Shown: positions 11,499-43,500, counted from the stretch's first letter. The stretch is 61,169 nt of DNA from a virus (IMGVR_UViG_3300031227_000040:1-61169); one strand, 5' to 3'. The notes: generated by a model from the letters alone, not told the origin. Program-made: numbers and translations.

Positions 11499-11504
11499 TT
11501 AACT

Positions 11505-11536: not shown

Positions 11537-11561
11537 AATTTCTTCTTATTTTTTCCATAGT

Positions 11562-12193: not shown

Positions 12194-12219
12194 GTGTTTG
12201 AACAAGCGGATTGTCCGTA

Positions 12220-12461
12220 AAGATATTAAACAGCAAAATGCCGCTGTAAATCGGCATTCTTCCTGTTTAATATCTTAAACGATTTTCAACAGCAAAATGT
12301 ACGACTGGAGTTGTAAACAACTCCTGAGGCACATTCTTCCTGTTGAAAATCTTAGTGCGACTTCAACCACAAAATATTCTTGGCATCGCGATATTTTATT
12401 CAGGAACTTACAGTTCCTAAAACAATATCGCAGGAGCCCGAATATTCTTCTGATTGAAGTC
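12220..12461. ncRNA. array of three long hairpins with conserved CAA-AAT...ATT-CTTC internal motif
   Basis: Units at 12220-12276, 12281-12351 and 12359-12461. The 11-14-bp basal stems differ in sequence but keep their pairing. Confidence 0.6.
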
Positions 12462-12484
12462 TTAATTAGTTAACCTTAGATTGT

Positions 12485-12646
12485 ATGAAGAAAAAAGAAT
12501 TATTAAGCAGATTAAGTGACGTTATTACTGCTTATTCTAAGGATCATACCGACTCAGTGGATAAGGATGAAGAGAAAGAATTTACTAAGAATGTTCGAGC
12601 CTGTGAAGAAGTTGAGAGATACTTTAGAATATCTTATCCTGGATGA
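12485..12646 (+). CDS. hypothetical protein (53 aa)
   Basis: Read manually: MKKKELLSRLSDVITAY...; ATGA overlap with the rtcB start. Confidence 0.6.
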   Translation: MKKKELLSRLSDVITAYSKDHTDSVDKDEEKEFTKNVRACEEVERYFRISYPG

Positions 12647-20442: not shown

Positions 20443-21579
20443 ATGTATACAGTAAATTTGGAGTATCTAGGAAAGATGCTCCCACTTTATTTTAAGTTGA
20501 AGAAGCCTTTGTATTTGTGGGGGAAACCCAGTACGGCAAAGTCTTCTATCATTAGACAGTTCGCAATAGAAGAAGCTGCGAAAAGAAAGTTAGAATATTC
20601 GGAGGATAAATTTGGTCCTCAATATTTCACTTGTAAAATAATTCCTTTATCCCAATTTGATGCTCCTGATTTAAGGGGTATGCCTGAGATTAAGAATGGA
20701 ATGACAACCTTTATTCCAGGCTGTGAGTTACCACGTGACGGTCAAGGAATAATTTTCTTTGACGAAATGAATTTGGCAGATGAGATAGTTCGTAAAGCTA
20801 TGTATCAGTATATCTTAGAAGGTAGGTATTCAAATCTTCCTCCTATCTATGATAAGAATGGACAGCTTTCTTATTGGAGAGTAGCTGCTAGTAATGAAGA
20901 GAGTGACTTTAGTAATGTCGGGAGGTTAAGACTGGCTTTACTTAGAAGATTTCATCACTTAAAGGTTGTGCCTGAGTCTAAGGAAATATTAGATTACTTT
21001 AGTAAGATTGGAGCGAATTCAATGGTGATAGCATATCTTCTTAATTATCCTACTGATTTGTTTCCTCATCCATATGATGAGAAATTGTTAGAAGCTAAAG
21101 CAAATCCATTCCCTTGTATGTGGGAGGCAGTCTCAGATTATATGTTAGCCTATCCTGATTTAAAAGGTAAGGGTAAGATGAATGATCTTAGAATTTTTGT
21201 TTCCTCCTCAGTGGGATTAGGAGCTGCTGCTAAGTTCATAGGTTTCTTAACCATGGCAACTAAGCTAAAGATTAAAGATATAATTAAGGATCCTAAGAAA
21301 GAAATTAAGAAGATTGATAAAGAGGATGAAAAGATTTCATTACTTTATGCTGTAATTGCTTCTCTTCAAGAGCGTTGGGTAAGAACTAAGAGTGCACTTA
21401 CTCCTCAACAAGTCGAGGGAGTATTAACTTGCCTTGATGTTGAATTCCAAACAGCATTTTTAAAGTTGTTAATGGGAGGCCAGAAAGGTAAGAGAAAAAT
21501 TCCTAAACTCTTGGCACAACCAGGAGTTACTAAAGCTATACAAGACCTTGGAATTTATCTAAATGATGATAATGGATAG
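20443..21579 (+). CDS. MoxR-type AAA+ ATPase
   Basis: Walker A variant GKPSTAKS, DLRGMP, Walker B IIFFDE, AASN, ALLRRF arginine finger. Confidence 0.85.
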   Translation: MYTVNLEYLGKMLPLYFKLKKPLYLWGKPSTAKSSIIRQFAIEEAAKRKLEYSEDKFGPQYFTCKIIPLSQFDAPDLRGMPEIKNGMTTFIPGCELPRDGQGIIFFDEMNLADEIVRKAMYQYILEGRYSNLPPIYDKNGQLSYWRVAASNEESDFSNVGRLRLALLRRFHHLKVVPESKEILDYFSKIGANSMVIAYLLNYPTDLFPHPYDEKLLEAKANPFPCMWEAVSDYMLAYPDLKGKGKMNDLRIFVSSSVGLGAAAKFIGFLTMATKLKIKDIIKDPKKEIKKIDKEDEKISLLYAVIASLQERWVRTKSALTPQQVEGVLTCLDVEFQTAFLKLLMGGQKGKRKIPKLLAQPGVTKAIQDLGIYLNDDNG

Positions 21580-22777
21580 AGAAAGATTTATAAGAGCTAA
21601 GATTCAAATGCTAGTTGATGAACCTTTCTTCGGTCAGTTAGCATCTTACTTAGTTCCTGTTGAAGTTGATAAGAAACTCTGTCCAACCATGGGTGTAAAT
21701 CAATTGGGAGAATTATATGTGAACCCAGAGTTTGTAGATAGTCTTCCCTTTAAAGAACTTAAGGGGGTTTTAATGCATGAGATTCTTCATCTTGCATTGT
21801 TACATCCCTCCAGAGTTCAAGACTTTAATCATAGATTGTTTAATGTAGCTGCTGATTTAAAGGTAAATGATATCCTTCTTAATGGAAATAAAGAAGTTTG
21901 TCTTCCTAAAGACGGAATCTTTCCTAATTATAGACATGAATGGGCTTTGGGAAAGATTAGAATTGAAAAGATTGATGAGAAAACTGCTGAACAAATCTAT
22001 CATGAGCTACAGAAACAGTGTCCTAAAGAGAAAAAGATTAAAGTAATGCTAGATTTAAAGTCTTCGACAGGACAAAATGATAAGAATAATAAGAAAGGCA
22101 AAGGCAAAGGAGGAGCAAATATACCAGGAAATAGTAGAGCCTTAACAAAAGAAGAAATGGAAACAGCAAAGAATGCTTGGTCAGATAAAGTTAATGGTCT
22201 AAAGGTCCAGGGATTGATGCCAGCTAATATAGATAGAGCCTTAAACAAGTTAAGAGCTCATAAGATTACGTGGAATTCTTGGTTGAACGGAAGGTTTGCT
22301 AGAATAGTTAAAGAAAGATCTTGGTCTAGAGCAAATAAAAGATGGCTTCCATGGTATTATCCAGGAGCTTCTAAAGTAAAAGGACTACGTTGTGTAGTTG
22401 CTGTGGATACTTCAGGTTCAATTTCCGATAAGGAATATTCGGAAATAATTTCCGAACTCTATGGAATCTATAATGATTTTAGAGGAGCAGTTGAGATGAT
22501 AGTTATTTCTTGTGACTCAGAAATACATGATGTATATTACTTAAAAGAAAATGAACAAGAGAAATTGAAGAACATAAAATTAAAAGGCGGTGGTGGTACA
22601 GATTTTAATCCAGTCTTTAATTGGATTAGAAAAGAACTTAGGCAAGAGGTCGATTGTCTATTGTACTTCACTGATGGCTATGGAGATTTTCCCCCTAGAG
22701 CATTACCGTTTGATACTATGTGGGTAATGACAAGTGATGTTAAACCTCCATTTGGCAAAACATTAAGCTTGAAATAA
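21563..22777 (+). CDS. DUF2201-type HExxH metallopeptidase + VWA domain protein
   Basis: PFFG.L, HEILH, FNVAAD..VN; MIDAS DTSGSIS, GGGGTDF.PVF, FTDGYG. Confidence 0.88.
   Translation: MMIMDRERFIRAKIQMLVDEPFFGQLASYLVPVEVDKKLCPTMGVNQLGELYVNPEFVDSLPFKELKGVLMHEILHLALLHPSRVQDFNHRLFNVAADLKVNDILLNGNKEVCLPKDGIFPNYRHEWALGKIRIEKIDEKTAEQIYHELQKQCPKEKKIKVMLDLKSSTGQNDKNNKKGKGKGGANIPGNSRALTKEEMETAKNAWSDKVNGLKVQGLMPANIDRALNKLRAHKITWNSWLNGRFARIVKERSWSRANKRWLPWYYPGASKVKGLRCVVAVDTSGSISDKEYSEIISELYGIYNDFRGAVEMIVISCDSEIHDVYYLKENEQEKLKNIKLKGGGGTDFNPVFNWIRKELRQEVDCLLYFTDGYGDFPPRALPFDTMWVMTSDVKPPFGKTLSLK
22440..22454. promoter_or_regulatory. 15-bp palindrome CGGAAATWATTTCCG, copy 2 (intragenic)
   Basis: CGGAAATAATTTCCG inside the VWA gene. 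Confidence 0.35.
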
Positions 22778-25244: not shown

Positions 25245-25721
25245 ATGAAGATAAAAGAATTACAGTTAAAGTCTTTAGGATTACCTTCTGTGTTTGATAA
25301 GCTCTTATCCTTGGTTACTTGTAAAAAGGGAAATCTCTGGACTATAGATGAGAATCTAGTTCTGACTTATGAGAAAGATAAATCTGAAGAGAAAGCTAAA
25401 TTAATTTTAGCTCATGAAGTTTTACATCTTTACTTGCTTCATCCTTTTATTGAGACACCTAAAGAAGTAAAGTTAATGCATGAAGTTACAGATTATCTTG
25501 TGAACGATATTCTAATCTATGAGTTTGGACTTACTGAATTACTTAAGATAGCTAAGTATAAAACAGATAAGGAAGGCTATACTCCTTGTGGAGTTTGTGT
25601 GAGGAATAAATCTTTTGTCGAACTCTTTGCTTTAATGTGTAAGCTGAGAGGAAAAGAAGTTCCTACAATAGTCTTTAAGAGAAAAGAATTAAACCATTTC
25701 TTGAAGTTAATGGTTAAGTAG
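25245..25721 (+). CDS. stand-alone DUF2201-N-like HExxH protein
   Basis: LAHEVLHLYLLHP...VTDYLVNDIL parallels LMHEILHLALLHP...AADLKVNDIL in ORF 21563. Confidence 0.65.
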   Translation: MKIKELQLKSLGLPSVFDKLLSLVTCKKGNLWTIDENLVLTYEKDKSEEKAKLILAHEVLHLYLLHPFIETPKEVKLMHEVTDYLVNDILIYEFGLTELLKIAKYKTDKEGYTPCGVCVRNKSFVELFALMCKLRGKEVPTIVFKRKELNHFLKLMVK

Positions 25722-26402: not shown

Positions 26403-28025
26403 ATGGAAGTTAAAGACGATAAAATCTTTCAGTGGTTGAAGGATCAAAAGATCTATACAGATAGTGGAGAACCATTTGAGTTTGAACAACATGGATTTTT
26501 AAAAGATTTATTTACAAATTTTAATAAGAACATTGTAGTAAAGAAATGTTCACAGATTGGTGTTTCTCTTGCGTTACTTTCAAAGATACTTTACTTATCA
26601 GATACTATGGACAAGAGAGTTAATACTCTTTATACTTTACCAACTGATGATGATGTTAAAGATTTTGTCAGAACTAAGTTTGACCCTATTGTTTTGGATT
26701 CTTATTTGAGTAAGTATGCGGAGGGTGTACGTAAAGAAGATAAAGTTTATTCCATTCAATTAAAGAAGATCTCTAATTCATTCTTTTACTTTAGGGGGTC
26801 TAAATCTAAATCAAAAGCTTTAAGTGTTTCAATTGATATCTGGATAGGAGATGAATGGGATTACCAAGATCAGAACATTAAGGAAATGTATTCTGAAAGA
26901 CTTAAGGGTTCTGGTTCTTTAAGAATTAATTGGAAGGTAGGGAATCCTACAATTCCAAATTACGGAATAGCTAAAGAGTTTGAAGACTCTACTCAGAATT
27001 ATTGGTACATTACTTGTCCAATGTGTAGACACGTGCAGCGTTTAGTTTGGCCTGATTCTATAGATAAAGAAAGAAAGGTATACGTATGCCGTCAGTGCCA
27101 GCGTCCTCTCACTGATGAGGTAAGGCTAGATGGTAAATGGATCCCAACCTACCCGGATCGTAAGCTAAAGGGTTATTCCTTTAACAGATTAATGGCTACT
27201 TGGTTCACGGCCGAAGATATACTTGATGACTTTAAGGTTAAGAAGATAGAGAATTTTTATAGATTTGTTTTAGGAGAATCATATGAAGGTAAGGGGATTA
27301 ATATTAAGACTAAGTTTAAAACTTTCTTAACGGACTATAAAATAAAGGAAGGTAAGAGAATTATAGGAATAGATCAGGGAGATAGATTCTATGTGGTCTC
27401 CGGTATAGCTGGAAAGAAACATAGGATAATCGATTATGCTGCTGTATTTGATAACCCTGCTGAGATTAATGAGATGATCGCTGAATTAAAACCTGAACTA
27501 GTTGTGATGGATGCTTTACCTAACAAACACTTAGGGAGGATTTTCCAAAAGCAGTATGGTAAAAATAAATTCCTCCTAGCAAATGAGAGAGAGAAATCTT
27601 TAAAGGCGGTTGAATCTTTAGATATTGATCATAGACTTGGGGTTGTTAGTGCTGATAGAACTATGGTACTAGATGAAATGTTTTCATTCCTTGAGTCTGG
27701 AGTTTTAAAAATAAATAAGAATACTTCCAATCAGGACCTTTTCAAAGATCATTTATCTTGTATCGTTCCAGAAGAAAAAGAAATTCGTGGAGTCTTAAGA
27801 AGAAGATACAAGAAGATTGGTGAAGATCATTTAGCCTTTGCTTTATCCTTTTTTCAAATTGGTGCAGCCATTATGGTCCCAATTAAAATAGAAAAGAAAA
27901 AAGATTTGGATAAAAAAGATTTGGAAAAGAAAGAACATAGCAATGATATTATGGATGATAAAGATTTCCGTAAAGCATTGGCTGGAAAAGAAACAGATAA
28001 ATGGGAAGAGATAACAACAATTTAA
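26403..28025 (+). CDS. terL: terminase large subunit (lambda gpA-like)
   Basis: KCSQIGVS Walker-A variant, WIGDEWD Walker B, GNPT, CPMC...CRQC Zn finger, RNase H-like IGIDQG, and DH near the C-terminus. Confidence 0.9.
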   Translation: MEVKDDKIFQWLKDQKIYTDSGEPFEFEQHGFLKDLFTNFNKNIVVKKCSQIGVSLALLSKILYLSDTMDKRVNTLYTLPTDDDVKDFVRTKFDPIVLDSYLSKYAEGVRKEDKVYSIQLKKISNSFFYFRGSKSKSKALSVSIDIWIGDEWDYQDQNIKEMYSERLKGSGSLRINWKVGNPTIPNYGIAKEFEDSTQNYWYITCPMCRHVQRLVWPDSIDKERKVYVCRQCQRPLTDEVRLDGKWIPTYPDRKLKGYSFNRLMATWFTAEDILDDFKVKKIENFYRFVLGESYEGKGINIKTKFKTFLTDYKIKEGKRIIGIDQGDRFYVVSGIAGKKHRIIDYAAVFDNPAEINEMIAELKPELVVMDALPNKHLGRIFQKQYGKNKFLLANEREKSLKAVESLDIDHRLGVVSADRTMVLDEMFSFLESGVLKINKNTSNQDLFKDHLSCIVPEEKEIRGVLRRRYKKIGEDHLAFALSFFQIGAAIMVPIKIEKKKDLDKKDLEKKEHSNDIMDDKDFRKALAGKETDKWEEITTI

Positions 28026-28026: not shown

Positions 28027-31000
28027 ATGGATACACAAAAGTTTTTAAAAGAGGTTAGTGCATCTAGGGAGATTCATGATAACTTCCTTAGTGCTACTGA
28101 AAAGAATTTATCGTATTTCTTTTGGGGAAAAGATCAGGAGATTGTAACTTTCAAAAAGGGTTTGTTTTCCTATGGGGATTTTATTAGTGCGATGGAATCT
28201 GTGGCCCCAAGTGCTTTTAATCCTAGTTTAATTCCTTTACAGATAATGTTTCAAGAGATGGGGAATTCTAAGATTAAAGTTCGTACAGCTCCTACTGGGG
28301 CTTTAACTAAAGTAGATGGAGCGTTTGAATTTGGGATTGAGTTATCTCAAAAGCTTACTAATATGTTTGAGAACTTTAGTCCTCATGGATTGACGGCCTT
28401 GTTTGAAATGATTAATCATTCTTACATGGTCTTTTATTTAGATGCAGGCCATGGGACAATACATTCATTAAGTTGTTCAGATTTTTATCCTGGAGATTCA
28501 GAGATCTCAGACTTACAATCACAACCATTTGTTGTTAGATTAACTAGTCCTCGTAAAGAATTATTACTAAGAAGTATTCCTAACTCTACTGATCCCAGAA
28601 TAAATTCCTCCGCTTATCATGATATTACTAAGCTATCTGAATTAACTGCAGTTCCTATTATAGATATCTGGAGTAAGGCAATTAATAAGAGAATCTTTAG
28701 CCTCCCTACTGGTGAGGTTTTATTTGAAGATGAAATGCCGGATGTAAAGACTTATCCTTTCTTTAAAGCTAGTGATAATCTTAGTCCTAATCGTTGGTAT
28801 ACTATGCCTATCATGTCAAAAATAAGACCGTTGCTTGAAAAATATAAGAAGGTTACAATGGCTATTGATCATGCAACTCATGCACAAGCTAGACCTTTGT
28901 TAGTTTATGATGAAGAAGCTTCTATTAATATTCCTAAACTTAAAGCTCAGTTGCAAGAGGGTGGTAAGAATATTCTAGTAGGTAAGAGTGAGATAGGTGA
29001 TATTCGTTACAAGCAACCCGGGCAGCTTCCAGAGTATGTCTTTGCTCATCAAGCAAATTTACTTGGTCAGATAAATCAATTACTAGGGATTGCTGGGATG
29101 GCTAGAGTTGGTGCAGTTAGAGAGAAGGGGGCCGTTGAAGCAATGATCCGCTCTTCTTTACGTCAGTTCATTTTCTATTCTAATCAGATTAGAGGAGCTA
29201 TAGTTAAGGCTAGTGATTACTATACTAGATATGTTCAGACTCATCGCCTACAATTTTTAAAAGAATTTAATGCTTTAAATTCCCCCTCTCCTTTATGGAC
29301 AGAGGGAGGTTATAAATCAGAAGTTGAGGTCTTACCTTCAGTAGCTTCTAGAACTTCAACTGAACAAGCTTTTATTTTGAGAAAGAATGATAAGGGACTT
29401 ATTTCTAAAGAACAAGCTCTTAGAGAATTAGGATATTCTAATCCTGATAGACAAAAGAAAGAATTAAATGAAGAGATATTAAGTCAAAAGAAATTAGCTG
29501 AAGAACTTAAGAGACCTTCACTTTCTTTACGTCAGGAAGTAGAACAGGTATTGGGTCCAGTATTAGGATACGTGCCAGATGTTCTTCTCTCTGGAGATTC
29601 TAAAGCAGTTGTTTCAGTTAATGAAAAGGATGTTGAGAAGTCACGTTTCTTATTAGGAGATATAAATGATAGAGTTTATATAGACGGATCAAGAGATCCA
29701 GAAACAAAGTCAGAAGAGGTAGAGTCTATGAGAGACAGAGTATCTGAACAACCTGCTCAACCGCCCATGGAAGCTAAGCAACCAACTGAGCAACCGGTTG
29801 AACAGCCAGCTGAACAGTTAGCTGAGCAGCCAGCCGAAGAACCAGTTGAGAAAGCTGAAACTACTAAGGAAGAAGCTCCTAAAGAAGCTGCTCCTAAGAT
29901 TAGTAAGTTTAAACAGATACTTGAAAAGTTAATTGAGATTTCTAAGGTTGGAATAAAGAAAGAAGCTGTAGGAAAGTTCATAAGTAAGTATCCTGGAATT
30001 TATTTAGCAGACCCAGCAGGTAATGATATCTATAGTGGGAAGAAATTAATGATAGTTAAGTCTAGGTTATTTGATATTATAGATAAGCCTCATATTTTAT
30101 TAGGGGGGAAGTTTGCCTATGGTGTTATAGTGCCACGTCTCCAGTTTAAAATGGATAAGAAAAGATTTCTAGAATTAGAGAAGTATCATTTAATATCTGA
30201 TAAACAGAGAAAGGAATGGTGGGACAATAAACCTTTACATGGATATTTATTTGAATTTCATAAGTTTGAGGAACCAGTAGAATGGGAACGCAAGCCTGGG
30301 GTTAAGAACTTTGTCAAAGCTCCAATTCCTTTGCGAACTGAGCACCTTGGTGTTCCGTATACGGGGGATTTAAAACCAATGAACTTAACTCCTTTTAAGA
30401 TTCCGCCTCCTGCAAAGCCAGAGAAGAAAGCTTTCCAGCCCTATGAAATATTTTCCCCCACTAGATTAAAAGATGTTATTCCAGTAGGAACTTATAATGT
30501 ATCAGAGAAGATAGATGGCATTAGAACTTTCTGTTGGAAGGTGGGAGATAAGGTCAAGTTCTTCACGGATACAGGAAACGAAATTAATGCTGCTAAACTT
30601 ACATTAGTAGCTGACTCAGTACGTAGTCTCTTTAAAACTCAGGATGTTTTATTAGATGGTGAGTTAGGAATGAAGGGGGCCAAACATGAGAGTGTTACAG
30701 GATTTGTGAGTAAGACTAGTCCGACTCCCGAAGAAAAAGCTGCCGTTGAATATATTACTTGGGATATTCTTTACTTGAATGGTAAGTCTTTAGCAGATAA
30801 ACCTTTCATAGATCGTTATAGATTACTTAATCTTAAGATTAAACCTGGACAAGCTAAGGGGAAAATTAGAAGAGTTAAAACAACTAATGCTTCTAGGGAC
30901 CAATTAGCTAAAGCAACTAAGACAGTAACTTCTCCAGAAGGCGTAGTCATTAGAGATATTGATGCAGCTTACTGGGCAACTCATGCAATGTACAAGATGA

Positions 31001-31407
31001 AGAAGACTGCTGACTTAGATGTTAAGATTATTCATGTAGAAAAAACTAAGAATAATCTCCCTGTCTTTCACTGTGCCTTAAGGGATGGAACTTATATGGG
31101 CCAAACCTATGCTCAGGGCGAAGTTAAAGCGATTAGAGGGGATGTTATTCGTGTGATGGTAGATCATTTTACAATTAGACCTGATGGTTCTATAGGGTGG
31201 TTTGCTCCACGTCCTAAAAATATTAAGTCTCCAGGCGCAGCATCTCTTAAACAGAAAGGTATTGGGAGTCCTGATACAATAGCATTTGTTAAGGAACATT
31301 ATCTCAGTCATTCTGGTACAGAGGAAGCTTGGAATAAATGGTTCCCAGCATTTAAAGCTTGGAGAATAGGTCCGATGAAAAAAATAATTAGTAAGTTAAA
31401 AGAATAA
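28027..31407 (+). CDS. portal protein fused to ASCH-like domain and ATP-dependent DNA ligase
   Basis: Directly after TerL with a ~500-aa helical portal-like N-terminus; PAEQ linker; GIYL..P....IYSGKK...K (ASCH-like); ligase motifs EKIDG, LLDGE, WDILYLNG, EGVVIR, KMKK plus an OB-like tail. Confidence 0.8.
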   Translation: MDTQKFLKEVSASREIHDNFLSATEKNLSYFFWGKDQEIVTFKKGLFSYGDFISAMESVAPSAFNPSLIPLQIMFQEMGNSKIKVRTAPTGALTKVDGAFEFGIELSQKLTNMFENFSPHGLTALFEMINHSYMVFYLDAGHGTIHSLSCSDFYPGDSEISDLQSQPFVVRLTSPRKELLLRSIPNSTDPRINSSAYHDITKLSELTAVPIIDIWSKAINKRIFSLPTGEVLFEDEMPDVKTYPFFKASDNLSPNRWYTMPIMSKIRPLLEKYKKVTMAIDHATHAQARPLLVYDEEASINIPKLKAQLQEGGKNILVGKSEIGDIRYKQPGQLPEYVFAHQANLLGQINQLLGIAGMARVGAVREKGAVEAMIRSSLRQFIFYSNQIRGAIVKASDYYTRYVQTHRLQFLKEFNALNSPSPLWTEGGYKSEVEVLPSVASRTSTEQAFILRKNDKGLISKEQALRELGYSNPDRQKKELNEEILSQKKLAEELKRPSLSLRQEVEQVLGPVLGYVPDVLLSGDSKAVVSVNEKDVEKSRFLLGDINDRVYIDGSRDPETKSEEVESMRDRVSEQPAQPPMEAKQPTEQPVEQPAEQLAEQPAEEPVEKAETTKEEAPKEAAPKISKFKQILEKLIEISKVGIKKEAVGKFISKYPGIYLADPAGNDIYSGKKLMIVKSRLFDIIDKPHILLGGKFAYGVIVPRLQFKMDKKRFLELEKYHLISDKQRKEWWDNKPLHGYLFEFHKFEEPVEWERKPGVKNFVKAPIPLRTEHLGVPYTGDLKPMNLTPFKIPPPAKPEKKAFQPYEIFSPTRLKDVIPVGTYNVSEKIDGIRTFCWKVGDKVKFFTDTGNEINAAKLTLVADSVRSLFKTQDVLLDGELGMKGAKHESVTGFVSKTSPTPEEKAAVEYITWDILYLNGKSLADKPFIDRYRLLNLKIKPGQAKGKIRRVKTTNASRDQLAKATKTVTSPEGVVIRDIDAAYWATHAMYKMKKTADLDVKIIHVEKTKNNLPVFHCALRDGTYMGQTYAQGEVKAIRGDVIRVMVDHFTIRPDGSIGWFAPRPKNIKSPGAASLKQKGIGSPDTIAFVKEHYLSHSGTEEAWNKWFPAFKAWRIGPMKKIISKLKE

Positions 31408-31409: not shown

Positions 31410-32141
31410 ATGTATACAAACTACTACATCGCAGGTGTTCGCGATGGTAAAAAAACTAGAGTCTTTAATAAGAATCTTCATCAGGGTATTTTAGCTGCAA
31501 GGAAAATTGGTATGAAGCCTACATCGAAAGATGCTTATGGTTATGACTCTAAGAAAAAGAAATGGGAAAGTTTAAAAACTTCTGCTCCTGTTGCTGCAAC
31601 TTTTAGGAAAGATGCTGCTAAGTCTTTATTAGAAAAAAGTAAACCAGTTAAAAGGATAAAGAAAGATTTTAAAGAAGTAAAACAAATGACTCGTGGATTG
31701 ACTGCTAAATCTTTATTGGAGAAAGGTATAAAAAGAACTAGTGATAATGCAAAGGCAATAATTGGAGTTGGAGCTGCTATTCTTAAAGGAGGACAGAAGA
31801 TTTTAAAGAAAACTAATTTTATAGTTCCAGCTGTTAAACTCTTAGGGGAAAAAATTAAGGTAGCAAAATCTACCATAGAAGCTAATCAAGCTCGTAAAGA
31901 TCTATTGAAAAAGTTCAGTGACGATTTACCTTCCACTATAATGGGAGCAGACAATTACAATAAAGCAGTTAGGACTATTGATGATTACTTAAAGAAAGGA
32001 AACTATGTAGCTGCTTCTAATTATATGGTTACTCAATTATTCAAGTTAGAGAATCAGACAAGAGGAACAGGAAGTAATACATACGTAGCAGATAAACTTG
32101 GTAATTGGTATGGGAAACATTTAACTTTTCCTGAAGAATAA
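31410..32141 (+). CDS. basic hypothetical protein (head module)
   Basis: Lys-rich; internal repeat AKSLLEK x2. Confidence 0.6.
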   Translation: MYTNYYIAGVRDGKKTRVFNKNLHQGILAARKIGMKPTSKDAYGYDSKKKKWESLKTSAPVAATFRKDAAKSLLEKSKPVKRIKKDFKEVKQMTRGLTAKSLLEKGIKRTSDNAKAIIGVGAAILKGGQKILKKTNFIVPAVKLLGEKIKVAKSTIEANQARKDLLKKFSDDLPSTIMGADNYNKAVRTIDDYLKKGNYVAASNYMVTQLFKLENQTRGTGSNTYVADKLGNWYGKHLTFPEE

Positions 32142-32377: not shown

Positions 32378-32661
32378 ACAAAGAAATCTTTCAGTTAACT
32401 ATGATTAGTCGTAGACTTTCTACCTTAAAAGGAAATAAAGGCAAGGTTTTTCTAGTAGGGGGAATGATTACGAATGGTCGGTCCGTTAGAGACATTGATA
32501 TTTTAGTTCAGAAGAAAGAAGATATTCCTTTAGTTAAAAAAGCAATGGGTCCATTTAGTAAGGATGTTCATTACTCAGTTGATAAAGGAAGCAGACCTAG
32601 TTCTAGATCTTACTTAACAATAGAACCAAAGAGTTTACCAGAAGTTAATAAGATCTTCTAA
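32374..32661 (+). CDS. minimal nucleotidyltransferase (Pol-beta superfamily)
   Basis: KVFLVGG-MITNGRSVR-DIDILV matches hG[GS]x9 DxD. Confidence 0.7.
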   Translation: MNKEIFQLTMISRRLSTLKGNKGKVFLVGGMITNGRSVRDIDILVQKKEDIPLVKKAMGPFSKDVHYSVDKGSRPSSRSYLTIEPKSLPEVNKIF

Positions 32662-33554
32662 TGAAAATAGATACAGAAAAAGTTAAGGGGAAATCTTATA
32701 AGGTTTATAAAGGAACTAAGATTCCTACTAAGGCAGAATTTTTAAGACGGGCTTTAAAGAAAGCTAAAGATTTAGACGTACATGAGAAGTGGATTGACTT
32801 CATTCCGGCTACCTTTACACTTCAATTACATGGTTGGTTTGATGAAGGAAGTTATGGAAAAGGCAAACAGGCCTTGACAAAAATAATATCTATTGTTAAG
32901 ATATCTTTAAAGAATCATGAAGACCCAATTCTTAACCTAAAGTATGGAAAGTTTCATTATGATTTACGAATAAAAAAGAAAGGTTCAGTTACATGGTTTG
33001 GTTTAACTACCTTTCGATTACCTTGGACCGGGACCCCTGAAGATAAAGTAATGGGAACTGTCAAAGGTTATCAAGCTCTAGTTAAGGGGTCTGAAAAATT
33101 AAATAAGTTTTTAAGAACAAAAGCAGAAGAAGCTTTAACTACTCAAGGAACCTCCGAACGTAGAGATCGTCCAAAGTGGATGAAGATTAAAGCAGAGTTC
33201 TGGAATCCTCCTGGACTAGGAACTCCTACTGGACAGCCTGGTGTAATGATAGCAATCGAATATTTAAAACCATGTGTTGTTCATAGAAGAGAATTAGATT
33301 TTCTGGATGCAACATTTATAGGAGAATTTTTTAAGGGAAGATATTACGATAGGCTAGTTGAAAGGAAATTAGAAAAAGGTTTTGGTTTAGGATTCTATTT
33401 TTGGAGAGCGAAACGTGCATGGAGTTTAGCAGCCATGGAGAAAATTGCTAAGGGTCAGACTAAGAAAGAATCAGTAGAAGTAAAGACTCAAGATGAAACT
33501 AATGAAATACAAATCTCCCTTAAGCCTAAATGGAAATATAAAAGTTCGAAATAA
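32661..33554 (+). CDS. LigD-type 3'-phosphoesterase (PE) domain protein
   Basis: FTLQLH ... FHYDLRI matches PE F..Q.H / HYD.R; late GEFFKGRY resembles the PE G..L.G.Y strand. Confidence 0.6.
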   Translation: MKIDTEKVKGKSYKVYKGTKIPTKAEFLRRALKKAKDLDVHEKWIDFIPATFTLQLHGWFDEGSYGKGKQALTKIISIVKISLKNHEDPILNLKYGKFHYDLRIKKKGSVTWFGLTTFRLPWTGTPEDKVMGTVKGYQALVKGSEKLNKFLRTKAEEALTTQGTSERRDRPKWMKIKAEFWNPPGLGTPTGQPGVMIAIEYLKPCVVHRRELDFLDATFIGEFFKGRYYDRLVERKLEKGFGLGFYFWRAKRAWSLAAMEKIAKGQTKKESVEVKTQDETNEIQISLKPKWKYKSSK

Positions 33555-34029: not shown

Positions 34030-34821
34030 ATGAAATTAAAGTTTAGCGAAAAAAAAGAAGAAGAAGAAACTAAAAAAGACGAAGAAGTTAAAGAAGAAAA
34101 GAAAGAGGAAAAAACTGTAGAAAAAACTGTAGAAAAAACTGAAGAGGAAGTTGTAGTCGCTCCTGATAAGTTTATGGAAGCTATCAATGCAGTTAAAGCA
34201 GGTCAAGAAAAGCTGGGGGAAAAACTTGGAGATGTTAACACTCGTCTTGATGTAATGGAAGAGGAAAAAGAAGAAGATTTTAATAGTGTTGGTGATGATC
34301 TATTTAAAGAAGATGAACCTGTTAAGGAAGAACCTAAGACAGAAGTTAAGGAAGATATTAAAAAGACAGAGGAACCTGATCTTGAAGCAGCTATTGCTGA
34401 TGAGGAAGGCTTTAGAAATAAAGTCTCCAAAGGTCAGAGATCTATTGCAGAACGACAAGATAAGATTGAGAGAAAGATTGATGAAGGTGAACTTAAAAGA
34501 GAAGTAGGAATTGCTAAAGAAAAATTCCCCAACGCAAAAGATACTGATATCCTTAGAGGAATAGCAGATGATCCTAACAAGTCAGCTATGGAAATAGCTG
34601 AAGAACTAAGTACAAATTTTGATAATACACGCAATGAAATGCGTAAAGAAATTAAAGAGGAACTTGAAGCAGAGGTAAAAAAAGAGCAAAAAGGTAACGT
34701 CTCTTTACCTCAGACACCAGGTTCAAAAGACTCTTCTACTGAAAATCCCGCTGAAGCTGGGGGCTTAGACCCTTGGCAAGATGCTAGGGATAAAGCAAAG
34801 TCGGAAGTTGAAGAAGAGTAA
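34030..34821 (+). CDS. capsid scaffolding protein
   Basis: Very E/K-rich coiled-coil protein directly upstream of the MCP. Confidence 0.75.
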   Translation: MKLKFSEKKEEEETKKDEEVKEEKKEEKTVEKTVEKTEEEVVVAPDKFMEAINAVKAGQEKLGEKLGDVNTRLDVMEEEKEEDFNSVGDDLFKEDEPVKEEPKTEVKEDIKKTEEPDLEAAIADEEGFRNKVSKGQRSIAERQDKIERKIDEGELKREVGIAKEKFPNAKDTDILRGIADDPNKSAMEIAEELSTNFDNTRNEMRKEIKEELEAEVKKEQKGNVSLPQTPGSKDSSTENPAEAGGLDPWQDARDKAKSEVEEE

Positions 34822-34851: not shown

Positions 34852-35856
34852 ATGTCCTTAATTGCAGAATTAACAGCTGCAACTCACAAGTATTACTCTC
34901 CAGTAGTCATTGATCAGATTTTTCAGTACTCACCTTTATTGTATAGAATATTCAAAATTGCTAAGGAAGGTTCTTGGGGTTTAGCACAAACAACTAGTGG
35001 TGGTCGTAAGATTGCAGAAACGCTAGAGTATCAGGAAACCGCTCAGGCTTCCGGGTCTCATGGTGGATACGCAAGCTCCGACACATGGGTCGCTGATGAC
35101 GAAGATTCATTAACTCAGGCTGAATATAGCTGGAAAATGTATCACGCAACCGTCAAGATTCCAAACATCACAGTATCAGAGAATTCAGCGAAAGCTAGAA
35201 TCTTCGATATTGCCGCCATTAGGTTGAAGAATGCTTCCAAAACTCTTAGAAAAGATCTAGCAACTGACCTCTATGCAGATGAAACCGGTGAATCAGGTAC
35301 TACAATGATGGGTTTACGCGCACTTGTCAAAGCCACTGGTACTATTGGTGGAATTGATAAGGGAAGTTACTCATGGTGGCAAGGTGTCATAAGCACAGCT
35401 GAATCAAATCGTACATTAACTTGGGCGATCTTGAACGACTTGTTTATGGATACTAAGCATTATGGTGACGGAGTCGCTTTATCTCTCTTTGTCTGTTCAG
35501 ACGGAGTAATGCAGAACTATGAAGATACCTATACCAAAGTCGTTGGTGCAGATACTTCTACTTCAGGTGTTCGCTTAGCTTTACAATCTGGTAAAGTACT
35601 TGAAGGTGGATTCAGATCCTTTATGTTCAAAGGAATCCCAATCGTTTCAGATCCTTTTTGTCCCGCAAACAAACTATTCGGTTTAACAGAACAATTCCTA
35701 CATGCTAGAATTTTAAAACAATTTGGAACTCTCGGTTGGAAATCAATTGAAGATCAAGGTAAGGATTACCTCCAGGCCACTTTTAAAGGTTATTTAGCTT
35801 TTACTTGTAGTTGTGCTAGAAAGCAATCTATGGCTGAAGCTTTGACTGAAGCTTAG
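34852..35856 (+). CDS. major capsid protein (HK97 fold, podovirus-type)
   Basis: 334 aa after the scaffold; Y.WK..., LYAD, GL.ALV...GTIGGID....WW, FKGIPIV.DP motifs; followed by a terminator hairpin. Confidence 0.85.
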   Translation: MSLIAELTAATHKYYSPVVIDQIFQYSPLLYRIFKIAKEGSWGLAQTTSGGRKIAETLEYQETAQASGSHGGYASSDTWVADDEDSLTQAEYSWKMYHATVKIPNITVSENSAKARIFDIAAIRLKNASKTLRKDLATDLYADETGESGTTMMGLRALVKATGTIGGIDKGSYSWWQGVISTAESNRTLTWAILNDLFMDTKHYGDGVALSLFVCSDGVMQNYEDTYTKVVGADTSTSGVRLALQSGKVLEGGFRSFMFKGIPIVSDPFCPANKLFGLTEQFLHARILKQFGTLGWKSIEDQGKDYLQATFKGYLAFTCSCARKQSMAEALTEA

Positions 35857-36851: not shown

Positions 36852-37534
36852 TGAGAGGCGCGTATGAAATCCTAATCTATATTGATGAAGATAGATATCC
36901 TGTAAGGAAGATGATTCAAACTTTTAAGAGTATACGTTACTTTCTTTCAAAGGGTAGAGCTCCTAAACATTTTAGATCATGGGGATTTCCATCAGTCTCA
37001 ATCTTGTTTAAGAATCCTAGTACTAAGAGGTTCATGAACATAAGAATGTATTACAAGTTTTATCCATGGTGGACTAGGATTTATTTTGGGGTTACTCCTT
37101 CTGAGTTCTTAAAGAATCGATTAGTAAGTCCACATACAAAAGCACTTTTAATTATACAAGCTCCTATAAAGTTTGGAGCGACTAATCAAGCTAGTCTTAT
37201 TAGATCAGCAAGATTCTTTGCCTCTGTAGTTTATCCTTTATATTCTAAGCAATGGAAATCTGCGGTAGCTAAGTATCCTGGGTTATTAGCTGTTCATAAT
37301 AAGACAAGGATTAGTGAGGGGGATTTTCAAACAGTTGGGAAAAGACTTAGTAAAGTCTGTCCATATTTCCAATCTGATTTCCGGAAATTATTTCCGAAAA
37401 AGAACTGGAAATGTTTTGCAATAAGAAGAAAAGGTTTGCATAATTTACAACATTATCCTGATGGCAGGATCGGGCCATCAGATAAGAATATAAGATTCAG
37501 AGTGTTACTTGATAATTTATATGACTCTTTATAA
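36851..37534 (+). CDS. basic hypothetical protein
   Basis: Packed ORF with TAATG overlap. Confidence 0.55.
   Translation: MRGAYEILIYIDEDRYPVRKMIQTFKSIRYFLSKGRAPKHFRSWGFPSVSILFKNPSTKRFMNIRMYYKFYPWWTRIYFGVTPSEFLKNRLVSPHTKALLIIQAPIKFGATNQASLIRSARFFASVVYPLYSKQWKSAVAKYPGLLAVHNKTRISEGDFQTVGKRLSKVCPYFQSDFRKLFPKKNWKCFAIRRKGLHNLQHYPDGRIGPSDKNIRFRVLLDNLYDSL
37382..37396. promoter_or_regulatory. 15-bp palindrome CGGAAATWATTTCCG, copy 3
   Basis: The 19-mer TTCCGGAAATTATTTCCGA is identical to copy 1; ~125 bp upstream of the giant ORF. Confidence 0.4.
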
Positions 37535-40500
37535 TCTATTTAAACAGCAAAGTTTACAACTCCCATCAGTATCAGAACGTAAGAAACTATATTCAGGATA
37601 TAAGCTGGGAGAGGATTATGTAGGTTCAGCTGAACAAAATATTAACTTAACCAAAGCTATTGAAAAAGATGTGCGAGCTTTTGATTCTTTTGTTAAGTCA
37701 TTAAAAACTCCTAAGGCTGTTGAGCCTAAGGAAGATATATTTAAAAAGGAACCGGTATTAGAAAGATCAGATCCTTTTGAGACAAGAGAATTAACTGTTG
37801 GTAAGACAGTTGGTGATTGGTTAAAGGAAAATAAAATAGAGTTTGAGGACTTTCAAAAGTTAAATCCAGCGTATAAGACACCGGATTTTAAGGTTGAGAG
37901 TCCTTTTAAAGTTAGAGTTGTTAAAGCTCCTAAGTTTTTAAAGGATTATCCTGAGCTAACAAATAGAACTGGGATGTCTATTGCACCAATTAAAATGATA
38001 AAGGAACCTTCTGAACTAGAGAAGATGATAAAGCAGACAATCCCTAATCTTTTAAAGGAAGGTATTAGAAAAATTCCTAAGCTTTTTGTTGGAGATAAAA
38101 ATATCTTTCCTCAGATAACTAGTGAGATAGCTAAAGGAATAAAGCAAACTAAAGAATTCTATAAGCAAAAAGATATTGAAAAGAAACTAGCTGATAAAAG
38201 TAAAGCTAAAAGTATTAGTTGGAATCCTAAGTCTATTTTAAAGTCTTTAATTTTACTTACTCAACCGGTAGCTCTTATAGAAAGAAGAGCAGATAAGAAA
38301 AAAGTTGAACTAGAAAAGAAAGAAGTTCAAACTTTAATTCCTACTATTAAAGATATTATAAGTGGAGACTCAAAGGTAGATATTAGTCGTAAAGAACAAT
38401 TAATACTGATTCAACCTAAAGAAGATAATCTTGGAGTCGAAGGAAATGCTGCTAGGTTAAAGAGATCTTTAAAAGAAACTGCTGACTTAAAGGAGGATTT
38501 TCTCCAAAAGAATATCACCTTAGTTTCTAGAGGAGATGAGATCACTGGGTTTACAGATGAGAAAGGAAAATATGAAGACTTCTATGAGTTAGATAAAGAT
38601 GTTAAAGAAGCAGAAGCGATGAAGGTAGAGGTAGAAGCACTTACTCAAAAGATAGGAGGGAATACTGCTAAGCTTCAGACTAACTCCGATGAATCTCTTA
38701 AGTGGCAAACTGAAATGTTTAACAATCTTGAGGAACGAACTGAAGTTATCTTCAGTATTATTTCAGATCCTGATATAATTAAAGACCCTTCCTTACTTGC
38801 TAAAATCTTTTCAATTTTCCCCTCACGTTCTAGCTTCATGTTAGGAGTTACTAAGGCCCCCGAAGAAACATTAATTCAAACTCCAGAGGTTAAAGAACTT
38901 ATCTCTGAGCTGGAAGGATTATATACTGAAAGAATGAAAGAGATTTTAGATGTTGCTTCTAGTGTCCAAGCTGGAGATGAAGCTGCTTCCACAAAATTCT
39001 GGGAGGGTCTTACAGAAAAGGAAATGGAAAATCTTGAAAGAGTAATGACTCTCAATAGATTGATTGGAGAGAAGGATGATTCAACTAAGATCCAAAAGAC
39101 ATGGGAACTAATGGAAGATCCTTATTTTCAGAAAGCCCTTTTAGATAGTTATGAATATCTTTCTGAAGAACAGAAAAAATTCTTAAAGCCTATAGTTGAA
39201 GTAGCTAGGTTAAATGCTGAGAGAGTTATTTTATGGCCACTAGTAAATAAAGAACTAGAATCTCAATCAGAAGAAGTAAAGAATTTGATAACTGAATATC
39301 AAAGTTTAATTGATAGTATTAATAGAAGGGTTGTAGTTCTTGGAGATCCTTCAGTCTCTGGGACTCTTGCTCATAATCTAGTTGAACTTAGTGAGACTGG
39401 TCAAGATTATTATAGAAGTATAAAACTATCTGAATTAAAGAGTGAAGCTGATAGATCAGAATTTCTAGAGACCTATGAGAGAGCTAGAACTTTTAAATCT
39501 ATGGCTAAAGCTAGAATGAATTTTCTACTTGGCCTTGGGAAAAAAACTGAGTGGCAACCTTGGAAAGCTTATAAGCAATCTTTATTCCCTGGAGGTTTTC
39601 AAACTTACTTAAGAGAAGGTGGAATTGGAATGGATCTTCCTCGCATAGTTAGTATCCCAATTTATCATGCTGCTAAATTTGGTTGGAAGACAATGATAAA
39701 AATGTGGGATACTGGTTTAGCTGCTGTCAGTACAGGAATTATAGCTGCTTTAGATATTACTTCTTCAGGATTCAAAGCTATTATAGAGAACCTTGGAGCT
39801 TTGTATGGGTATGAAGAGAAAGATGTTATTAATCAAACTACATTAGGGGAGTATCCATTTAAGGAAGATAATTTTCTTAGTAAGATGTGGAATGTTGCTT
39901 CTTTTAATGTATTCAATTTACCTGATGCTTCTAGATATAGTGATATCAAATCTATCCCAGTTGGAGAAAGATTTCTTCCTGAGAATATAGGTAAGTGGGT
40001 TGATTTTAAAAGAGGTGGATATATTCCACAAGTTTTTGCTTCTCAATATCATCCTCGTGCTTATGAAAAAAAGTTGATTGTTGAAACTTCTAAACCATTT
40101 GATCATCTTCCTAAAGAATTTATGGGAGTAAGAGAGGAATTTTTACAGTTAAATGGTTTAACTGAAAATTCAGTTTTAAAAATGGGACAAAGAATTATGG
40201 TTCCTACAGAGGCTTTTGTTTCTCCACGTAATTTACTTGATCCTAAGTTAGTAAACAAATTAGAGCAATCTCTTAATGGTAGATTAAGTTTGTTAGCTTT
40301 TGATTTTCTTGGATGGGTTAAGTTAGATCCACTTACAGTTTTTTGGAGTGGTATTGGTTCCACTTCTAAATCGATAATGAAACATATTTCCCCTAAGTAT
40401 GCTAAGCAATTAAAGACTAGGAAGGATCTGTTAGCTTTTTCTAAACAGTATTCTAAGTCTACTGATATCGCTGAGGATTTAGCTAGCTTTATTACAGGAG

Positions 40501-43500
40501 ATGCTGTAGCAGAAGGATTTTTAAAGGCAACCTTCCCGGGAATGATAGAAGCCAGAAAAGCTTTAACCAGCGTTAGAGTTCTTGATAATTTAGATCCACG
40601 AATTTTAAACCAAATAGAAAAGCTTTCACAAAAAGGAGAACTTTGGAGAAGTGGATTCTTCTCTAAGACTTTTCTTGATGATGTAAAAGGTAAGATTGGA
40701 AAAGAAAAGTTTAAAGTTTTTAAAGAAGGTTTAGAAGGATTAATGTTAAAAGGTAAACTTCCTGAAGCTACTAATAATATTGTATGGGAAGTGTTGAATC
40801 AATATGGTGGTGATGGATTTAAAATGATACAGAAAATAATTAAGGGTACTCCAAAAACATTTACAAATGAATTAGGGAAATTAGTAAAGAGTTATCACAC
40901 TGCTGAGATGAGACAATACGTACTACGTAAAAATTTAGATGATGCTTTAAAAGGATTAGCTCCATCTGAAAGAAATGCTGTATTAACTCTTTCTCAAAAA
41001 ACTCCTGCTCAAATTACATTAGAGCTTTCTCGAATGAAAAAGCTTGGAAAAGGAATCTCTTTTAAGGGTAAGTTATTTCAGAGAGCTGAGTTTAATAGTA
41101 AATCAATTGAGAAAATTAAAAGGGCTGTTGCTGAAACTAAAAAGAATCTATCTGAGATTGAGAGTATAATCTTAAAAGGTGACTCTATTATTAAATTACC
41201 AAATGGAAGTAAGATTGTATTTAAATTTAAGGATGGGGGAAAGAACTATTATGATCCGATCAGTAAAGTTTTTGTAATTGAGAAGCCAGGAAACATGGGA
41301 GTTAGTGGAGTCCTTAATGATTTCTATAGTCAGGTTGGAAAACAAGCAACTAAATATTTAGATAATACTACTGCTTATTTCTCTGAGTCAACTCTTTTAA
41401 AAAGATATTACCTCTCTTATGAAGATATTGTAAAGGAGATTAAGAATGGGAATATTGGACTAGGCCATAGATTAACTGATACTCTAGTTAAGTTTAATGG
41501 TGAGGAAATAAAGCTAAAGAAATTCCTAGCAGAAATTAAACAATTAGCTAAAGAAGAGCCTGGTCTTCCTTTTAAAGAGAGAGCATGGAAAAAGATTAGT
41601 AAGAATTTACCCAATGAGGGGAGCTTTTCATCTAAGAAATGGAGTTTTGAAATTCCAGTTAATACTAAAAATTCCTCCTCAGTAGTTGAAGCGATGTTAA
41701 AACATATTAAGTTTGATGTTCTAACCAATAATAAATGGGAAGGAATGAGTGGGAGTGAGTTTAGAACTATGTTAGAAAAAGTTGCTAAGATAGATAATGC
41801 TTTCATTCCTACTACTGTAAGTAAAACAGTTTATACTACTCTTCCTTTTCAGTATGGACAAGCTAGTAAGGCTCTTAAGGGCTATTCAGCCTGGGGAGAG
41901 ATGCCAACTAGGCAAGCCATGCAGAAACTTTTAAAGGAAGAATCTAAAAAGATAATCAAGGTTACTGATCCTAAAGACTTTAGAGCTTATTTTGAAGAGG
42001 CTATGAGTCTATACTTTATGAAGAAGTATGATCCTACATCTTATGTTAAATATAAGAGTGATATTTTTCAGATGTTTGAGAATCTTACTCCTCAAAAATT
42101 AAATCAGTATTTAAATTCTCATCAAAAGATTGCTTTAATGATCTTTAATAATGAGAAGAAAGGTATTCAATCTTTACCCCCTTCACTTATTTCTTTATTA
42201 GAAAAGTTTACTGGCAATGCTGATGATGTTAAGAATGCATTAACTAAGTTTTTAAAAGGAAGAATAGAGGCTGAGAAGATTCAGATATTAAAAGCTGAAA
42301 AGATTAGAAAGTTAAATGATTTTAGAGTTGGTAAGATAAGGAATCCAGAAGCTGAATGGCAACTATATAAAAAGAAGTGGTCCCTTGACCTAGCAATTAA
42401 TCCTAAGAGTGAAGAATTTTCTGTTCTCCATGATATTTTAAAAGAAGCTCCTATCTTGAATTTTAAAAAGACTCCTTATTTAGTTCCTAAGAAATGGATT
42501 ACTAGAGCTGAAGATAATTACTACTTAAGAAGAGGGAGATCTGTTGCTGAACATGAAGCTTTATTCTTAGATATTCAACAAGGTGGAAGACAAAAGCTTG
42601 CTCAAATCTTATCTAAGAAGATTCCAAAGACAAAAAGAATTGTAATCATGGAAGATTTAAGTAAGTCTATTAAGAATGTTAAAGCTCAAACCTATACGTA
42701 TTTACCTTCTAATACTAGAAAAGAAATAGATAAAGAAGTTGAAAGAATAGTTTCTAAACTTGGAAGAGAAGGTTACTTCGTGATTCCAGAAAGTCATAAG
42801 CTGTCTAAGTATGCTTATAATAAGATGTCTGAAGTTTTGCCTCCTGGCAAAGTAAGCTTACTTAAAAGACATGGAGCAGGGAAAGATAGATTTGCAATGA
42901 GTGAAGCTAAGGCCGTTAATACACTAAAGGAACTAGGTCAGTATGAAAATTATACAATGTGGGGGGCAATTTCTGAGAAAGATATTTTTGAATTCTGGAG
43001 CAGAGTTCCTGAATATATTCCTAGGTTTAAATACTATCATGGTACAGGTAAAAAGTTTACTGCTCCTATTGAAGGAATGAAAACAAAGGGAACCTTTACC
43101 TGGATGCCTGATCTCAGAGCAAAGAATTTAGATTTCAGAAGAGAGATACTTCCTTTTATAAAAAAGAGAAAGAATACAAATGCTAAGTTATTGGCAGAAT
43201 TTATTTCTTCTCCTACTGGAGCTGTAGATGATCTTTCTGTTTCTGCAATTGCTCAAGCTGTAGAAGTCTTAGAAAATAAGAAAAGAATTTTAAATGGAAT
43301 TTTCGACTCTAAGAGTTTCTATATTCAAAAATCTAAGAGTGGAAAGAAACTAATAAACTTTAAAGGAAAAGGAAAACTTGATGATCTAGACTTGGATTCT
43401 ATTATCTATTTTTCAAATGGTAAGACTGTTGGGAATATTTCTGATTCAATTAGGAAGAGAGCAAAGAAGTTTATCTATGAACAGAAGTATTTAGATAGAT

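Follow-up and report, generated by a model that had tools for sequence, protein, structure and literature searches.

A predicted phage portal protein fused to an ASCH-fold domain and a probably active ATP-dependent DNA ligase

INTRODUCTION

What is a DNA ligase doing at the end of a phage portal protein? This question is raised by one gene of an uncultured salt-lake phage that is represented by a single metagenomic contig, IMGVR_UViG_3300031227_000040. The 61,169-base stretch that we analyzed, hereinafter the window, is an entire IMG/VR virus record, which is linear and, according to CheckV, 59% complete. A first-pass annotation, made from the sequence, pointed to an uninterrupted open reading frame (ORF) in the portal slot after the gene for the large terminase subunit (TerL) and read it as a portal fused to an ASCH-like domain and a complete ligase. 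The ORF is indeed continuous: it spans positions 28027-31407 (+), begins 2 bases past the TerL stop codon, and encodes 1126 amino acids (aa). The evidence presented here points to a protein that consists of a portal-fold domain, a disordered linker, an ASCH-fold domain, and a minimal ATP-dependent DNA ligase, a layout that recurs in divergent relatives and suggests, tentatively, a ligase tethered inside the capsid.

RESULTS AND DISCUSSION

A portal fold in the head module

The succession of TerL, the fusion ORF, and the capsid gene puts the fusion ORF in the head-module position expected of a tailed-phage portal, and the same order is found in the related viral loci L002-L005. All large ORFs of the record are on the + strand. 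Searches of sequence families gave no direct portal assignment: Pfam and PHROGs returned only the ligase and no portal family for the whole 1126-aa protein, Pfam searches with five N-terminal parts of the family produced only noise, and the family profile retrieved nothing at E ≤ 10 from the PDB sequences.

AlphaFold modeling of aa 1-565, based on a 31-row alignment, yielded a model with a pLDDT (predicted local distance difference test) score of 79.9. In a Foldseek comparison of this model with the PDB, every one of the 43 matches listed was to a portal or portal-tail entry of a phage, with E-values down to 8.4e-13 and template modeling scores of 0.37-0.52; these include the entries of Pan3, LME-1, HRP29, SU10, T7, N4, 80alpha, and SPP1. 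A profile built from the five N-terminal parts and searched against 1.84 billion representatives retrieved 31 proteins, among which were 14 strong matches (E ≤ 1e-30), namely, 11 proteins of 786-1515 aa and the three short fragments P0016, P0018, and P0020, and 15 weak matches (E from 3e-7 to 5e-4) of 599-708 aa. All 10 weak matches that were scanned belong to the Pfam family P22_portal, with scores above the cut-off, and most also match SU10_portal; among the relatives, P0014 matches SU10_portal below threshold (E = 7.8e-4). We consider the portal identity of aa 1-565 settled at the level of the modeled fold because the fold, the position after TerL, and the remote profile link to P22_portal agree, with no direct family match. 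The portal-like segment of ~500 aa proposed in the first-pass annotation is borne out, as is each of its other structural statements.

An ASCH-fold domain next to the ligase

The C-terminal part was modeled separately (aa 640-1126; 17-row alignment; mean pLDDT 86.9). Residues 15-132 of this model aligned in VIA-align with the ASCH protein of Z. mobilis (5guq; Z-score = 10.9, root mean square deviation 3.1, 117 residues aligned), mouse CXorf40A (6kir; Z-score = 9.8), and E. coli YqfB (9kyf; Z-score = 9.6), followed at lower scores by TRIP4/ASC-1 (9kyk; Z-score = 7.7) and 3s9x (Z-score = 7.5), one entry being titled ASCH domain. Given that unrelated models typically reach Z-scores of 7-8 in this program, the top ASCH matches exceed the noise and the lower ones do not. 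Ten matches stay within this stretch of the model, starting at residues 5-15 and ending at 106-135; all of them are small proteins of this type, including some unnamed ones that we take to be ASCH proteins. The domain boundaries lie close to those anticipated for an ASCH/PUA-like segment (~29990-30320). Pfam searches with the isolated segments from the window and L002-L005 matched no family at E ≤ 10 (0 of 5), and an Atlas feature search, useful as a lead only, scored 0.94 to a cluster of viral proteins, 15% of which carry ASCH. On the strength of the model, we assign aa 654-771 to the ASCH fold, and not to the ASCH family as defined in Pfam (PF04266).

Among viral proteins in BFVD, those from giant-virus bins (125 aa and 372 aa) are 33-34% identical to the ASCH-like domain over 113-119 columns. 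The entries noted for the C-terminal model were A0A516LT18, A0A481Z0I5, and A0A3G5AF11, and its top structural match in this database was an unnamed protein of 827 aa, aligned over 342 columns (E = 1.5e-17).

A minimal ATP-dependent DNA ligase

Unlike the portal and ASCH parts, the ligase is recognizable by direct family matches. Pfam DNA_ligase_A_M (PF01068) covers aa 825-992 (E = 7.2e-18; 65.4 bits versus a cut-off of 26.2), and phrog_114, "ATP-dependent DNA ligase," matches with E = 8.5e-21; the mRNA_cap_enzyme match in Pfam remained below the cut-off, and a PDB sequence search gave weak matches to archaeal ligases. The nucleotidyltransferase (NTase) motifs are located exactly where the first-pass annotation had placed them: motif I (EKIDG, aa 827-831) with Lys828 encoded at nucleotides 30508-30510, motif III (LLDGE, aa 875-879), motif IIIa (WDILYLNG, aa 912-919), motif IV (EGVVIR, aa 971-976), and motif V (KMKK, aa 990-993). 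In an alignment of 12 ligase parts, Gly831, Gly878, Glu879, Asp913, Glu971, Gly972, and Arg976 are present in all 12 sequences, and Lys828, Asp830, and Lys990 in 11 each.

Each of the 50 Foldseek matches of the C-terminal model in the PDB was an ATP-dependent DNA ligase or a complex that includes such a ligase, aligned over 300-400 columns (best E = 9.4e-15). In VIA-align, model residues 146-457 were superimposed on the closed ligase of A. fulgidus (3gde; Z-score = 21.6, 288 residues aligned), and the model matched the whole Chlorella virus ligase (2q2t; Z-score = 15.9, 232 of 293 residues) and a minimal bacterial ligase (4d05; Z-score = 15.1, 226 of 249 residues). These whole-ligase alignments run through the region that had been called OB-like (oligonucleotide/oligosaccharide-binding), which is therefore real at the level of fold; the enzyme consists of the NTase and OB domains, without a large DNA-binding domain.

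Two further elements flank this core. The leader peptide that precedes the NTase domain is kept in the 12 aligned ligase-bearing proteins and absent from ligase-less relatives; it is modeled without helix or strand, with block-mean pLDDT values of 67-85 at aa 780-809 (model residues 141-170) and below 50 before that. The helical tail, with modeled helices at model residues 446-455 and 460-486 (pLDDT 84-95), is kept in 11 of the 12 ligase-bearing proteins, the exception being P0010, which stops before it. The ligase part as a whole is basic (isoelectric point, pI, of 9.7). The coordinates of all parts are given in Table 1.

Where the ASCH part gives way to the ligase, the window contains an in-frame T_TTA_AAA heptamer (30369-30375). 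A -1 shift there would reach a stop after eight codons and give a ligase-less portal. We make no claim of frameshifting: the heptamer is present in three of the four DNAs examined and is equally explained by AT-rich codons on the conserved GDLK.

Table 1. Features of the fusion protein and of the flanking head genes, with positions in the window
Feature	Position	Strand	Basis
Large terminase subunit (TerL)	26403-28025	+	Pfam GpA_ATPase, E = 6.7e-24; phrog_675, E = 7.2e-84
Portal domain, aa 1-565	28027-29721	+	fold match; remote profile link to P22_portal
Acidic disordered P/E/Q/A-rich linker, aa 566-647	29722-29967	+	composition; pI 4.85; variability
ASCH-fold (PUA-like) domain, aa 654-771, basic (pI 9.6)	29986-30339	+	VIA-align fold match
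Conserved extended leader peptide (GDLKP...KPEKKAF), aa 773-810	30343-30456	+	alignment; model
Ligase NTase domain, aa 811-993	30457-31005	+	PF01068; motifs I, III, IIIa, IV, and V
Ligase OB-fold domain, aa 994-1063	31006-31215	+	modeled beta strands; fold alignments
Basic C-terminal helical tail, aa 1085-1126	31279-31404	+	modeled helices; conservation
Major capsid protein	34852-35856	+	phrog_9953, E = 1.7e-33; Pfam SU10_MCP, E = 2.4e-4, below cut-off; marks the head module

The fusion is conserved in divergent relatives

A word-indexed search identified a 799-aa relative without the ligase and three fused relatives of full length, whose best local alignments show 36-47% identity. For a census of architectures, domain hidden Markov models were run over the collected proteins and four viral loci, giving 21 full-length sequences (the fragments P0016, P0018, P0020, and P0021 were left out) that share 22-67% identity in the portal part. 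The ASCH-fold domain is present in all 21. In 14 of them, it is followed by the ligase (P0001-P0004, P0007, P0010, P0012-P0015, P0017, P0019, L002, and L003), and the remaining seven consist of portal and ASCH only (P0005, P0006, P0008, P0009, P0011, L004, and L005); Pfam agrees with these assignments for six sequences. The first-pass annotation can accordingly be refined in that, in these sequences, the constant part of the C-terminal extension is the ASCH-like domain and not the ligase. In L002 and L003, synteny with the window is kept from upstream of TerL to past the capsid gene. Another fused relative, L010, is 36% identical over aa 123-1126 and opens a 51.9-kb contig, at positions 94-3132. 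The contig was binned with a metagenome-assembled genome (MAG) of candidate division WOR-3, which is a lead to host or habitat only, as the binning names no host.

Considering that the record is a single metagenomic contig and that no cultured phage matches the fusion protein (the whole protein had no match by tblastn against 50,697 phage records), it has to be weighed whether the contig is an assembly chimera or whether separate portal and ligase genes were read through as one. The nearest cultured phages are very distant, with at most 28% identity in the capsid protein and ~26% in TerL (SPO1-like phages). An artifact is nonetheless extremely improbable. The continuous ORF recurs in 14 of 21 relatives from several sources, and the base composition (~33% GC) is unbroken across 28027-31407. 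Moreover, contigs (not reads) assembled from four other salt-lake metagenome runs, possibly of one campaign, match at ≥99% without joints or loose ends and bridge every junction: X2 record 1 spans 28800-30391, that is, the end of the portal, the linker, the ASCH domain, and 49 bases of the ligase part, X3 record 4 spans 28968-30247, X4 record 9 spans 30347-31126, and X2 record 2 spans 30416-31400. Because the layout is conserved in divergent relatives and borne out by contigs of other runs, chance and artifact are excluded; the fusion is not a misassembly.

One probable gain and several losses of the ligase

The portal parts of the 21 family rows were placed, together with eight P22-like outgroups, in a quick maximum likelihood tree whose support was estimated by the Shimodaira-Hasegawa-like approximate likelihood ratio test. 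The ligase-bearing P0019 branches first, on a long branch that was flagged by the tool, followed by an all-ligase clade that includes the window protein (support 99). The ligase-less forms fall into three separate nested groups, and the minimum number of changes over the 21 rows is three. The simplest reading of this topology is one early gain of the ligase followed by at least three losses. No separate ligase was found in the records of the ligase-less L004 and L005 (69% and 85% complete, respectively).

Four relatives carry insertions of ~330 aa with the features of inteins: they start with Cys, end with His-Asn, and are followed by Cys. The insertion in P0012 is inside motif I, between the lysine and the following residues, and those of P0007, L002, and L003 are inside motif V, between its two lysines; the intein-bearing ORFs of the latter two loci are at 6001-10389 (L002) and 6001-10338 (L003). 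Pfam Intein_splicing matches two of the four insertions, below the cut-off. As a rule, inteins reside in the conserved active sites of enzymes whose activity is required. Because the catalytic residues are conserved and the inteins sit inside the motifs, the ligase is probably active, as far as its sequence can tell.

Separately, in L005, the TerL ORF (3434-5986) is 850 aa long, compared with 540 aa in the window, and the capsid-protein match is split over two ORFs (10042-12503). Further inteins or introns are a possible cause.

How the ligase might be used

The linker contains 45 P, E, Q, or A residues among 82, and encloses the P/E/Q/A-rich segment recognized earlier at ~29745-29900; residues 559-565 of the portal model, at its edge, have pLDDT values below 50. 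In the relatives, linkers are 24-182 aa long and variable in sequence, and no conserved site was found in them. The tetrapeptide RGRP, which we take to be an AT-hook-like core, occurs in the linkers of 8 of the 21 relatives (P0002, P0003, P0004, P0007, P0010, P0012, P0013, and L005) and is absent from the window protein. Among the three ORFs between the portal and capsid genes, no maturation protease was recognized in sequence searches: 31410-32141, 32661-33554, and 34030-34821 matched nothing in Pfam (E ≤ 0.01) or PHROGs and gave nothing usable in phmmer searches of the PDB. When Pfam was searched at E ≤ 10, only noise appeared for 31410-32141 and nothing for 32661-33554, and the best Atlas score for 31410-32141 (0.82) was not usable.

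A portal is the ring by which DNA gets into and out of the capsid, and its C-terminal crown points into the capsid interior. With the C-termini facing inward, up to 12 ASCH-ligase modules of ~55 kDa each would hang at the inner mouth of the channel. The first-pass annotation proposed that the ligases stay tethered, or are cleaved and co-ejected, and that they would seal nicks, circularize the genome, or repair breaks. The reading that we tentatively prefer, at a little short of an even chance, is a portal-tethered, capsid-internal nucleic-acid-binding module whose ligase seals nicks of the phage genome at the portal vertex. We favor a permanent tether because conserved sites are lacking in the linker, both domains that it carries are basic, and no protease was recognized. 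The ligase would receive AMP on Lys828 while still in the cytoplasm, ahead of procapsid closure, would remain tethered to the portal, and would act on the phage's own DNA at entry or exit, sealing nicks during packaging or near the portal-proximal end of the genome, so that the genome would reach the next cell intact. Within the tether, ASCH would serve as the constant element that binds DNA or RNA, with the ligase as an ancestral but dispensable addition. The more specific picture of a ring of up to 12 pre-adenylylated, tethered ligases that repair the phage chromosome either within the virion or during passage through the portal, with the ASCH domain as a DNA holder throughout the family, is rather doubtful. 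Such a ring would make a DNA-repair enzyme an integral component of a capsid instead of a cytoplasmic one.

The same linker could instead be cut, within its length or at the ASCH-ligase junction, during head maturation or ejection, with the adenylylated ligase leaving along with the DNA. This release, the main alternative, is unlikely in our estimation, as is its proposed outcome, in which the enzyme would, in the new host, seal cohesive ends or nicks or repair breaks made by defense nucleases before phage genes are expressed. Long disordered linkers are readily cut by proteases, and a ligase delivered with the genome would act when the DNA is most exposed. A possible zincin-like protease is encoded upstream of TerL, at 25245-25721, in an ORF that is kept in L002 and L003. 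Against release stand the lack of a recognized maturation protease in the head module, the lack of a conserved site in the linker, and the need for a folded protein of 40-55 kDa to unfold in order to traverse the portal-tail channel. Release would agree with the published reading of enzymes fused to portals or MuF proteins as packaged and injected (PMC5512222, PMC9503650). A need for sealing cohesive ends, on the other hand, cannot be assumed, given that the nearest cultured relatives of TerL (SPO1-like, ~26% identity) are too distant to indicate the type of genome ends; cos ends, which we initially deduced from the GpA-type terminase, were dropped for this reason.

The distribution of the domains brings up a different role, in which the basic ASCH and ligase parts serve as a DNA-binding mass, such as an inner body, a genome-end anchor, or a valve, with catalysis secondary or absent. 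The presence of ASCH in 21 of 21 proteins versus 14 of 21 for the ligase, the basic character of both domains, the RGRP linkers, and the repeated loss of the ligase while the rest stays are all compatible with such a role. Nevertheless, the catalytic residues are kept in 11 of the 12 ligase-bearing proteins, and the inteins occupy sites in motifs I and V that are typical of enzymes selected for activity; accordingly, we assign only a small probability to a mainly structural module.

The ligase could also work before assembly, with free portal subunits sealing nicks in concatemers in the cytoplasm and the later enclosure having no function. Late co-expression with the packaging genes would provide the right timing, and the fused enzyme is the only ligase match in the record apart from the RtcB-type RNA ligase described below. 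In T4, head filling requires ligase (PMC10893049). The record is incomplete, however, so that a separate ligase may lie elsewhere, and fusion to a structural protein of 12 copies would yield few molecules. The maintenance of the fusion across 22-67% portal identity argues that the linkage itself is selected, and no close standalone relatives of the ligase part were found; the search gave only three short proteins, two of them on contigs of ~1 kb or less, and these are probably fragments. The probability of a cytoplasmic role appears to be smaller still than that of a structural one.

Several observations also count against the tethered, nick-sealing ligase that we prefer. A DNA-filled capsid would leave a tethered enzyme little room to search, each ligase may act once at most because the supply of ATP inside the capsid is doubtful, and the only nicks to reach a ligase on the inner side would be those that had already gone through the motor. 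The failure to recognize a protease is weak evidence, as the three head-module ORFs were searched by sequence only. In addition, the upstream ORF 25245-25721 (+; 158 aa) has a metallopeptidase-like match to DUF2201_N, "putative metallopeptidase domain," that falls below threshold (E = 8.4e-4; 19.5 bits versus a cut-off of 23.2), making it a candidate, unproven processing peptidase. Pfam DNA_ligase_A_C was not matched, so that the OB fold is accepted at fold level only, and no motif VI was identified; a W[FY]APRP stretch that is conserved where the OB domain ends (aa 1058-1063) is, we presume, a possible equivalent. Finally, the ligase seems dispensable, having been lost at least three times and being degenerate in P0010. 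This protein, sister to a ligase-less pair, carries Lys828>Arg, Asp830>Asn, and Lys990>Glu and ends inside the ligase, a state that resembles ongoing decay.

Should the ligase prove to be active and located in the capsid, the virion would bring its own DNA-sealing activity to the sole vertex through which the genome passes. This would bear on how a pressurized genome is kept free of nicks, on the protection of the first DNA to enter a cell, and on the purpose of C-terminal extensions of portals. The family provides natural controls: some members carry the ligase, others lack it, and in one it is decaying.

Other genes of the window

An RtcB-type RNA ligase is encoded at 12643-13839 (+; phrog_1075, E = 1.3e-123); the phage therefore has an RNA-repair ligase besides the portal-fused DNA ligase. 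Upstream of TerL by 3.6 kb is a 404-aa HNH endonuclease (21563-22777, +; phrog_1314, E = 5.2e-77), a portion of which resembles the L002 orthologue of ORF 25245-25721.

Directly after the head and neck genes lies a giant ORF of 4505 aa with a TTG start (37509-51026, +), which had no Pfam match at E ≤ 0.01 and no PHROG match at E ≤ 0.001; its product may be a virion-internal or tail giant protein. A cluster at 3056-8974 (+) encodes two phrog_2170 glycosyltransferases, a protein of 726 aa that is weakly matched as GtrB-like, and a heptose-phosphate kinase/adenylyltransferase-like part fused to a phosphatase or polynucleotide-kinase-like part, and could be involved in cell-surface or DNA modification. 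The window also encodes a tRNA-Gln with anticodon CTG at 1827-1899 (+). None of the nine gene starts inspected (26403, 28027, 31410, 32661, 34030, 34852, 35875, 37509, and 51660) is preceded by a Shine-Dalgarno-like sequence, the leaders being AT-rich, which hints at a host without Shine-Dalgarno initiation.

Comparison with known portals, ligases, and cargo fusions

The solved portals of short-tailed phages (Pan3, 9vyf; LME-1, 9efk; SU10, 7z44; T7, 7ey6; N4, 9yf5) share the fold of aa 1-565 over 460-720 alignment columns and likewise follow TerL. Nearly the whole domain is aligned, with E-values down to 8.4e-13, yet identity is 9-14%, and the C-terminal extension of ~560 aa has no counterpart in these structures, judging by entry titles and lengths. 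Known ASCH proteins (5guq, 9kyf, and 9kyk) have the same small beta-barrel fold as that modeled for aa 654-771. The position of this fold at the end of a portal tether is new for an ASCH domain as far as the literature was searched; in the titles and the beginnings of abstracts of 10 of the 30 papers that mention portal proteins and ASCH, no fusion of the two is indicated. The ligase resembles the minimal ATP-dependent ligases 2q2t and 4d05, which also consist of NTase and OB domains without a large N-terminal DNA-binding domain, at ~19-20% identity. It differs from them in the conserved leader peptide, the helical tail, the fusion to a structural protein, and a motif IV whose last residue is Arg in all 12 sequences.

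The closest known parallels in layout are the fusions of PBECR RNase, 2H phosphoesterase, InPase, Nudix, and ADP-ribosyltransferase domains to MuF or portal proteins, which were described by comparative genomics and are interpreted as packaged and injected effectors (PMC5512222, PMC9503650). The statement that no characterized example was known thus holds for the ligase within the literature searched and fails for other enzymes on portal or MuF proteins. All three occurrences of "ligase" in PMC5512222 concern RNA ligases, and no portal-DNA ligase fusion was found in the literature searched, where supplements may list more architectures. To that extent, the portal-ligase fusion is undescribed, whereas fusions of enzymes to portal or MuF proteins as such are already known. 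The known cargo fusions and the window protein alike have a C-terminal enzyme on a head-vertex protein, are encoded in a terminase-portal block, and are predicted to lie inside the capsid; the window protein differs in that it carries an ASCH-fold domain and a complete ATP-dependent DNA ligase and in that nothing indicates release.

With regard to function, the nearest comparison is T4, in which ligase deficiency impairs head filling (PMC10893049). The T4 ligase shares with the window protein the link between nick sealing and DNA packaging that we propose, but the T4 enzyme is free and cytoplasmic, whereas the ligase of the window is borne by the portal.

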